The position numbers and the translations under genes are program-made. From Octopus sinensis (taxonomy: Eukaryota), in contig NC_043019.1 of the NCBI RefSeq assembly GCF_006345805.1, positions 18,537,360 through 18,601,359 of the forward strand: DNA of 64,000 nucleotides, in the 5' to 3' direction. Below the pieces are notes generated by a model that worked only from the letters and a program-made list of their open reading frames with translations, had not been told where the DNA came from and did no database searches. Positions 4,196-37,023 of this stretch are shown one piece after another. The stretch's first letter is position 1. Each line of letters begins with the position of its first letter.

Positions 4196-4819
4196 TCTGA
4201 CTCCTCAGATTTTTTGAATGCTGGACTACTGGTTTTAAATTGATATTAAAATTAATATTAATTTATCTCCCTCAATTTTTAAATATTTAAATAAATGCGT
4301 TCCCTAGTTGTAAGCACTATCCGCAGTGAATTATTCACTGCAGTCCTTCGCTTCAGGAGTCTCTCAGCGCGCCAGAACCAAGACATTTGAAATTTTATTC
4401 CCGATGTAATCAGTAAGACTAAGCACGTGTCTGTCTTGACACAGAGAGCTGGGGTTAGTCTTGCGGTTTGCATCACGAGGACCGAATGTGCTGAAGAAGT
4501 CACGGACACTTGAATTATGCAAGTAATTCTTTTGTTAAGACCGAAACCGAGGTATGCATTTAAGTCTGTTATTTATTTAATTTTTCATATGTCCTGCCCG
4601 CCAAAGTTGGTTCTGGTGTTCGCTGAATTCTTCCTCTAGAGAATTTCCCTTGTAGTTTGATCGTTGATGATCTTCTTCTAGCATTCTGGCCGGCTACCTA
4701 GCAGGCCAGCCCTGCCAATATACACATATATTTGAATTTTCTCTGACTCCTCAGATTTTTTGAATGCTGGACTACTGGTTTTAAATTGATATTAAAATTA
4801 ATATTAATTTATCTCCCTC

Positions 4820-4825
<6 letters not shown>
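4196..4825 (+). mobile_element. Non-coding Penelope pLTR / retrozyme-like unit: 546-bp monomer plus 84-bp terminal direct repeat
   Basis: 4196-4279 is repeated at 4742-4825; a hammerhead lies inside; flanked by TA-rich microsatellites. Confidence 0.75.
4484..4561 (+). ncRNA. Type I hammerhead ribozyme with extended stem II
   Basis: gaatgtg CTGAAGA agtc...gaattat-GCAA-gtaattc...gacc GAAA ccgagg TA tgcattt; predicted cleavage after 4554; A-C mismatch at the base of stem II. Confidence 0.7.

Positions 4826-4900
<75 letters not shown>
4826..4900. repeat. (TA)n microsatellite
   Basis: Pure TA run. Confidence 0.98.
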
Positions 4901-4903
<3 letters not shown>

Positions 4904-5128
4904 GAAATATTAAAATTACTAAGTCTCTCTAAAAGAGATCACGGCAGCGTTCCTGGAAAATAATAGTTATCGCCATACTAACATGGCATTCTTATAAAAA
5001 TAAGAATAAAGCTGTCCGCTTATTAGCTCCATGAGGCCATCGCCTTAAGTTAGCTATTTGATACACAAACTGTATCCATATAACCTTCGAACAAGGGAGG
5101 TCAGTCGCTCCACACTACTTGATCGACA

Positions 5129-5170
5129 GCTACAGACGCGTTTCGGGGTATTGCCCCTTTTCAATGTAGC
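5129..5170 (-). ncRNA. Minimal type I hammerhead ribozyme, U3-A8 core variant (appears intact)
   Basis: Minus strand: gctaca TTGAAAA gggg-caata-cccc GAAA cgcg TC tgtagc; perfect stems I and II, palindromic CGCG in stem III. Confidence 0.85.
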
Positions 5171-5467
5171 GTAGTCAGACCAGTAGGTGTCGCTTCCGAC
5201 AATCTCTGTTCGAAGGTTTTATTTACCTAGTTTCAGTGGCCTCATGGAGCTAATAAGCGGACAGCTTTATTCTTATTTTTATAAGAATGCCATATTAGTA
5301 TGGCGATAACTATTATTTTCCAGGAACGCTGCCGTGATCTCTTTTAGAGAGACTTAGTAATTTTAATATTTCTATTATTGAAAACAAGTGGATGTATTCC
5401 ACTGAAACTAGGTAAATAAAACCTTCGAACAGAGATTGTCGGAAGCGACACCTACTGGTCTGACTAC

Positions 5468-5509
5468 GCTACATTGAAAAGGGGCAATACCCCAAAACGC
5501 GTCTGTAGC
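5468..5509 (+). ncRNA. Second copy of the same hammerhead, G12A mutant (probably inactive)
   Basis: gctaca TTGAAAA gggg-caata-cccc AAAA cgcg TC tgtagc; GAAA to AAAA at 5494. Confidence 0.8.
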
Positions 5510-5672
5510 TGTCGATCAAGTAGTGTGGAGCGACTGACCTCCCTTGTTCGAAGGTTATATGGATACAGTTTGTGTATCAAATAGCTAACTTAAGGCGATG
5601 GCCTCATGGAGCTAATAAGCGGACAGCTTTATTCTTATTTTTATAAGAATGCCATATTAGTATGGCGATAAC

Positions 5673-5730
<58 letters not shown>

Positions 5731-6319
5731 ATATGTATGTATGTATATATATTACATGTATATATGTATAGGCAATTATGCAGATAAATAAATTAGGTAG
5801 ATTAATTATTTCAAATATATTGAATAACATTTTTGGGGTATGAAATACAAAATATTATCATTCAACCACAGTAGTGGTTAAGTCCACCATTACGTCAGTC
5901 ACAGCAACTTCCAAGCTTCACCACTAATTCAGTTCTCAACTAAATTTCAAACTGTTAACAGTTTTAAAGAGGACACCTCCTTAGTTACACTTTGGCATAA
6001 ATAGTTTGAGATTTGGTTCAGTGGAACAAAAGTTACATCAAAATATCTGCGACCTCAAGGGAGGCAGTAAGGTAGGTATTCATCTTCAATTAGCATAATT
6101 TTAAAAATTTTAATATAAGTGTATACTTTTCTTAGGCTTAAATGATAGAAAAATGCAGAAGGAATTCAGAATCGTTAGTTGCATTGAACAAACATTAGTA
6201 GAAATAAGTATCAGGTAGAATACCACGAAATTTAATGTCAGTAAGTTAGGAAGTAAGGGTGTAATGTCCCATGCAATAAGAATAAAGAATGTATTTCTAA
6301 AATGAATGTTTACTTTCTA

Positions 6320-18553: not shown

Positions 18554-18625
18554 TGGAGATGCCGGGGATCGAACCCAGGGCCTTTTGCATGCTAAGCGAA
18601 TGCTCTATCATTGAGCTACATCCCT
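18554..18625 (-). tRNA. tRNA-Ala(AGC), probably a pseudogene
   Basis: 72-nt cloverleaf AGGGATGTAGCTCAATGATAGAGCATTCGCTTAGCATGCAAAAGGCCCTGGGTTCGATCCCCGGCATCTCCA; G3-U70 Ala identity pair and TTCGA loop present; A1-C72 mismatch, lost D-loop GG, anticodon-stem mismatch. Confidence 0.85.
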
Positions 18626-36938: not shown

Positions 36939-37023
36939 TGGACCTGATGAGTGACTATATTTAAATTGAATTGATTTTACTGTTATCAGTTTGAAAATAT
37001 AGCCACGAAACGCATGTAGTCTA
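36939..37023 (+). ncRNA. Type I hammerhead ribozyme with canonical core and long stem II
   Basis: tggac CTGATGA gtgactatattt...aaatatagccac GAAA cgcatg TA gtcta; predicted cleavage after 37018; inside an AT-rich pLTR-like tract 36600-37275. Confidence 0.82.

Follow-up and report, generated by a model that had tools for sequence, protein, structure and literature searches.

An ORF-less, hammerhead-bearing non-LTR retrozyme, that is, a nonautonomous Penelope-like element, is the best explanation for the repeats at positions 4898 to 5678 of the window (the 64,000-nucleotide stretch of the Octopus sinensis genome that we analyzed; contig NC_043019.1, positions 18,537,360 to 18,601,359), where a (TA)n tract is interrupted by two arms joined head to head. 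We assign this explanation as a whole a probability of roughly 0.8, which covers the element class, the fixed outer ends, and the likely origin of the arms as two cDNAs primed on one RNA.

Based on repeat comparison and alignment, we numbered a 362-nt unit from 1 to 362 along its full copy in the right arm (5237 to 5598, plus strand). The unit is followed by an exact 80-nt repeat of its positions 1 to 80 (5599 to 5678, plus strand, repeating 5237 to 5316 at a spacing of 362), the outer end of which is the “short” start site (position 80). The left arm (4898 to 5239, minus strand, 342 nt), read from 5239 to 4898, aligns without gaps to unit positions 163 to 362 and then 1 to 142, with the “long” start site (142) as its outer end; its terminal bases blend into the TA tract. 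Inverted matches of 280 nt (4960 to 5239 versus 5399 to 5678) and 142 nt (4898 to 5039 versus 5237 to 5378), each 99% identical, relate the arms, which meet at a head-to-head junction (5237 to 5239) where both share TGG. Unit positions 81 to 142, lying between the two fixed ends, form a 62-nt “tail” that only one arm carries at its outer end (4898 to 4959, minus strand). The left and right parts of the (TA)n target lie at 4825 to 4900 and 5676 to 5770, and the TA sequence masks any target duplication at this locus. All of this bears out the initial annotation, which described a 362-bp monomer with an 80-bp repeat, a left inverted part continuous across the monomer junction, and a join through TGG microhomology. 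It had also reported copies differing at a couple of positions, and the arms mismatch at exactly two sites, 5144 versus 5494 (unit 258) and 4982 versus 5294 (unit 58). Position 258 is G in 74 loci of the family and A in 4, and 58G is present in 1 of 90 loci; a second assembled version of the locus lacks it.

The first 12.8 kb of the window recurs on contigs C10 (4.226 to 4.246 Mb) and C8691 (200.5 to 220.5 kb; loci L227 to L230), with flanks 97.9 to 99.3% identical to those in the window. These copies carry their own substitutions and have the same left arm and TGG junction, and their right arm holds only unit positions 1 to 80. Unit positions 143 to 162 are present in the right arm of the window and missing from its left arm, so the simpler reading would be that the other copy lost one unit lying between the 80-nt repeats. 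The comparison places both arm differences after the insertion, as their frequencies in the family also suggest. As judged from these alignments, the insertion is young, in line with the recent event originally proposed, yet older than the split of the assembled copies. The TA tract of the C10 and C8691 copies also holds a third hammerhead array, with 3 to 4 units of ∼559 nt, and three hammerhead families (362-, 546-, and ∼559-nt units) are thus stacked within one microsatellite.

Scanning the whole window for type I hammerhead motifs, we obtained three, one of them inside the left arm (5129 to 5170, minus strand). This minimal motif is intact by motif scan and column conservation and consists, in order, of helix I, the core UUGAAAA, a 4-bp helix II, GAAA, and a palindromic ACGCGU helix III, with a predicted cut after C, between 5135 and 5134. 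Its core is the U3-A8 variant which, together with a palindromic helix III, is described for Penelope-like elements in the available text of PMC4209133, where such minimal hammerheads are thought to act as dimers and to have low activity. A second motif in the right arm (5469 to 5509, plus strand) has G12 changed to A at 5494 and is predicted to be inactive. Each unit bears a type I hammerhead motif, that of the window's right unit lacking G12, and the earlier description of a hammerhead-bearing unit of ∼362 nt agrees with both the scan and the 1,296 exact matches to the core found genome-wide. In 74 to 75 loci not selected by motif, core positions 238 to 244 vary only at the free N7; core conservation is taken from these loci, as the search motif itself dictates the U3-A9 columns of the covariation alignment. 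Older subfamilies retain the pairing of helices I and III. No Rfam hammerhead family matched at the gathering and E-value thresholds. Fold prediction and covariation suggest a long rod extending helix I (5078 to 5222, minus strand). The arm fold has a z score of −6.8, with 0 of 100 shuffled sequences as stable, and across 52 rod pairs in 50 rows, 4 showed two-sided change, 11 showed one-sided change, and 10 were broken in at least 3 rows.

To place the insertion in a family, we searched the genome (2.7 Gb in 13,516 contigs). The DNA search gave 2,168 first-look candidates, of which the best 40 were scored; exact matches included 913 long ends running into TA and, for the young subfamily only, 305 short ends running into TA, indicating a family of about a thousand copies. 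We collected 135 loci and removed 7 duplicates, leaving 128 for analysis, the window included (40 best matches, 29 picked by the long end, and 59 by the short end). Head-to-head arms occurred in 105 of the 128 (92 long plus short, 2 short plus short, 0 long plus long, and 11 other), and the remaining 23 had no inverted pair under the rule used. Long plus short thus accounts for 92 of 94 classifiable pairs overall and, in the 40 loci unselected for ends, for 26 of 27, with 1 short plus short and 0 long plus long (binomial P = 2 × 10^−7). Breakpoint mapping on these copies showed that throughout the family the outer ends fall at two constant unit positions, ∼80 and ∼142, 62 nt apart, and that the inner breaks are spread around the unit, clustering on the 3′ strands of stems. 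The term “circularly permuted” used originally therefore suits the inner ends but not the outer ones. Each fixed end falls within the motif CTATTAT(T), a sequence that could base-pair with TA or TAA ends. TA flanks both sides of 74 of the 105 paired loci and one side of 23, and the sole two long-plus-short loci with readable, non-simple flanks both have 12-bp target duplications.

Arms longer than one unit (70 of 184) agree with the claim that the template exceeded one unit, whether circular or multimeric; unit repeats continue up to the junction in paired arms, and locus L048 has arrays of six full units. At L175, L187, L196, L018, and L027, entire two-arm insertions are tandemly duplicated along with their TA flanks.

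The TA tract that holds the 362-nt insertion also contains another ORF-less hammerhead family, which consists of a 546-nt unit plus an 84-nt repeat (window positions 4196 to 4825, plus strand), with a canonical hammerhead core at 4486 to 4559 and 1,431 first-look candidates. It has two fixed ends ∼100 nt apart and pairs long with short in 7 of 8 inverted loci; one long-plus-long pair in this family counts against our reading. Elsewhere, the window contains another type I hammerhead motif with a canonical core and a long helix II (36939 to 37023, plus strand), a tRNA-like match of 53.8 bits (18554 to 18625, minus strand), and several broken LINE reverse transcriptase frames.

Because each arm has its own outward-facing fixed start, one arm of a pair is long and the other short, and the inner breaks are independent, we infer two priming events joined by microhomology. 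A borrowed Penelope reverse transcriptase (RT)-endonuclease would likely cut both target strands. Very probably, each cut strand would then prime from either of two internal start sites, as occurs in vitro for an anole element, and both cDNAs would stop randomly or at RNA stems and be joined head to head. Microhomology would serve to join these independently ended cDNAs, and direct-repeat recombination could later add or remove whole units. The anole precedent, as given in the accessible portion of PMC11167929, is that the purified Penelope-type protein of PAc, a Poseidon element of the green anole, cuts and extends both strands of AT-rich DNA and uses two adjacent internal RT starts, the spacing of which equals the genomic tail; a dimer is predicted.

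To examine the template, we typed 90 young paired loci at 16 polymorphic sites. Arms within a locus differed at 11 of 629 comparisons, versus 36.6% between loci; neighboring units differed at 18 of 867, and 28 haplotypes were found among 62 fully covered loci. Both arms were probably copied from one RNA molecule, or from transcripts of one source locus. At sites covered at least 3 times, 132 rare variants were present in one unit, 15 in some units, and 10 in all. The 15 suggest that units were duplicated locally afterward or that templates were mosaic, and they weigh toward linear multimers or such duplication. The 10 fill all 3 to 5 units of their locus (9 span both arms and 4 are single-locus variants) and favor passage through a single unit, as a circle would provide. 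Whether the template would have been a circle, formed by hammerhead cleavage and ligation and copied by rolling reverse transcription, we regard as an even call.

We lean slightly against an alternative that differs from the best reading in the template only. In this account, which keeps Penelope-type double priming, the RNA copied would be a linear multimer that had partly cleaved itself, or else a short transcript lengthened through terminal-repeat jumps, with no role for circles, and long arrays would grow later by unequal crossover. Arm ends coincide with the predicted cut site (266 to 268) in 6 of 210 cases (expected, 1.7; P = 0.009), and 4 of these 6 arms (L004, L005, L008, and L010) had passed intact sites, a pattern that would fit linear multimers cleaved in part; this peak, however, does not rise above those at other stems (306 to 308, 12 ends; 279 to 281, 8 ends). 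Stepwise variant patterns in L060, L186, and L054, the difference of one whole unit between copies of the window locus, and the finding that ribozyme cleavage was dispensable for insertion of the anole element in vitro (PMC11167929, in the part available) also favor a linear template. Against it, the 10 all-unit variants and the many haplotypes, each constant across its locus, call for a bottleneck of a single unit. Building on the circular template, we put forward more speculatively that an RT-endonuclease dimer might bind one small circular ribozyme RNA asymmetrically, prime each cut strand at its own start site, and roll both cDNAs around the same circle, a step that might give rise alike to the tail, to the inverted pseudo-LTR, and to the arrays of animal retrozymes.

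The initial annotation favored one cDNA with a template switch, and this part of it was not supported. Self-priming on an antisense template has been proposed (PMC3846280, available text), and a single cDNA that switches template or folds back to prime itself, so that the inverted arm copies the first arm or antisense RNA, would account for the one haplotype per locus, the short overlaps (at least 2 nt in 62 of 90 young junctions), and the 5 of 92 pairs that are near-symmetric. Under such routes, junctions should be symmetric or a second fixed start should be missing, and we observed neither. The inner breaks of paired arms were independent, with 5, 12, and 14 pairs within 5, 15, and 30 nt, compared with 3.9, 9.2, and 16.2 in shuffled pairs, and this test largely refutes the fold-back or switch route. 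The left arm in the window also extends 62 nt past the end of the right arm and so was not copied from that end, and long and short arms are alike in length (medians, 283 and 268). Arm ends did not accumulate at the start site of the other RT (0 and 3, versus ∼5 each), which left a model of collision between an RT and the other RT's start site unsupported as well. Taken with the fixed outward starts and the pairing of long with short ends, these results make a single-cDNA origin improbable.

Coding Penelope-like elements in the same genome bear on the enzyme source and on whether the unit is itself part of a coding element. Intact frames of 775 to 784 amino acids with RT and GIY-YIG domains are present, with RT scores slightly below the Pfam cutoff. 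From a GIY-YIG profile search we scored the best 150 of 5,029 candidates, extended 16 loci, and followed three chimera or neighbor families. The clade labels used here, Neptune-type and Hydra-like, are provisional and based on sequence motifs together with features described in PMC8557442. In a coding Neptune-type family, all 6 readable inverted pairs (7 fetched) joined an arm with a tail to a short one, which makes the end-pairing rule general to these elements in this genome and, with the 105 loci above, upholds the Penelope-type inverted layout claimed at the outset. The young Neptune-type elements L121 (C1, 207.47 Mb), L124 (C19, 35.63 Mb), and L297 (C3, 57.63 Mb) have an additional upstream frame of 437 to 479 amino acids that overlaps the RT-endonuclease frame; the one such frame searched had no convincing Pfam match. 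Two Hydra-like coding families (L303 to L331 and L138 to L166) have hammerheads, an N/S-rich stretch preceding the endonuclease, and tails of ∼150 and ∼95 nt, which exceed the 30 to 40 nt of published Penelope-like elements. Tails of coding families measured ∼30 to 37, 95, and 150 nt, and that of the 362-nt family is 62 nt.

Hints as to a partner conflict, as the U3-A8 core matches Neptune-type families and the chimeras are mostly Hydra-like. Four chimeric loci (L023, L027, L051, and L077) join the unit to 3′ parts of coding Penelope-like families, in three cases (L023, L027, and L077) to Hydra-like elements. In L023, a short end of the 362-nt family is paired with a long end of a Hydra-like family, and in L051, the unit is inverted relative to the endonuclease frame. 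We discounted an apparent extension of the L077 frame into the unit as a one-off joint, since the sequence continues differently in 39 other copies of the element. No sequence was common to the unit and seven sampled coding families, and comparison of the unit with the 3′ regions of six of these gave z scores of at most 2.2, with −0.7 for the 3′ end of the seventh. This result counts against the best explanation, as do the differing tail lengths of the coding families, the 23 loci without an inverted pair, and the lack of an Rfam hammerhead match.

It is very unlikely that a coding Penelope-like element supplies the unit as its pseudo-LTR and that the copies are 5′-truncated inverted insertions of that element. 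Coding families here do show the same layout, and the 128 loci examined come from roughly a thousand or more. Among those 128, however, we found no RT or GIY-YIG frame belonging to the unit, only one-off neighbors or chimeras (including both loci with an endonuclease frame at an arm, L077 and L051); the flanks of single arms have no common upstream sequence, and the longest ATG frame on a multimer of the unit is 21 amino acids. The early statement that the element has no coding sequence therefore stands, and of the pair of features that had been named as telling against it, fixed ends and an attached Penelope ORF, we found the first without the second. Assembly artifact can be set aside almost entirely: none of the contigs listed from four sequencing runs spans the junction and two assembled versions of the locus differ, but the same junction recurs in two other assembled copies that carry their own substitutions and is therefore no artifact, 105 analogous loci exist, and contigs from runs X1 (possibly from the source sample) and X2 contain many other left-to-right joints, as well as ends at 142 followed by TA.

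The type of element is already known, in that one-ended tails, tandem nonautonomous forms, and retrozymes of similar size are all described in the available text of PMC8557442 and PMC7229834. Animal non-LTR retrozymes are ORF-less tandem units of 150 to 450 nt with low GC and a type I hammerhead per unit, occur as monomers to multimers, and in mussels have units of 350 to 390 nt (PMC7229834 and bioRxiv 10.64898/2026.07.22.740005, in the parts available). The 362-nt family has the same properties, with a low-GC tandem unit of a few hundred nucleotides, no ORF, and a type I hammerhead. It differs in its inverted two-arm insertions with fixed paired ends (the word “inverted” occurs 0 times in the available text of PMC7229834), and whereas RNA and circles have been shown for animal retrozymes, the evidence for this family comes from genomic DNA. 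Animal retrozymes have been proposed to be nonautonomous Penelope derivatives, a case made from co-occurrence and trees with the mechanism left open (bioRxiv 10.64898/2026.07.22.740005, accessible part).

Endonuclease-positive (EN+) Penelope-like elements show an inverted pLTR, a one-ended tail, microsatellite targets, and variable target duplication (PMC8557442 and PMC3846280, in the sections available). The 362-nt family carries this signature, with an inverted, 5′-truncated arm, a single tail, an AT-rich microsatellite target, and variable duplication, along with the U3-A8 minimal hammerhead (PMC4209133). Unlike those elements, it has no RT or endonuclease frame, its tail is 62 nt rather than the usual 30 to 40, and the whole 362-nt element is the repeat unit. 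Two adjacent starts and an AT-rich target cut on both strands recall PAc, but PAc is coding, its starts occupy an AC-rich loop that has no homology to the target, rather than CTATTAT(T), and use of one start site per strand was not seen for it in vitro in the available part of PMC11167929. Nonautonomous Chlamys elements such as MRC1 are likewise Penelope-like with head-to-tail copies; as characterized in the available text of PMC8557442, they resemble the 3′ ends of their partners and have no canonical hammerheads, whereas the 362-nt unit has a hammerhead and no partner homology among the seven sampled coding families. Our literature search, confined to accessible papers, returned no account of the 362-nt family or of counted end pairing or arm haplotypes in retrozymes.

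The origin of the Penelope inverted repeats with a one-sided tail and the mobility of retrozymes are open questions in the available text of the papers cited. The approximately one thousand young insertions in this octopus offer three countable rules, namely, long-plus-short ends, one haplotype, and independent inner breaks, which count against fold-back models and directly connect a retrozyme with Penelope chemistry. In vitro work could start from the 362-nt RNA, whose two start sites are mapped, and from the intact enzymes that this genome encodes.
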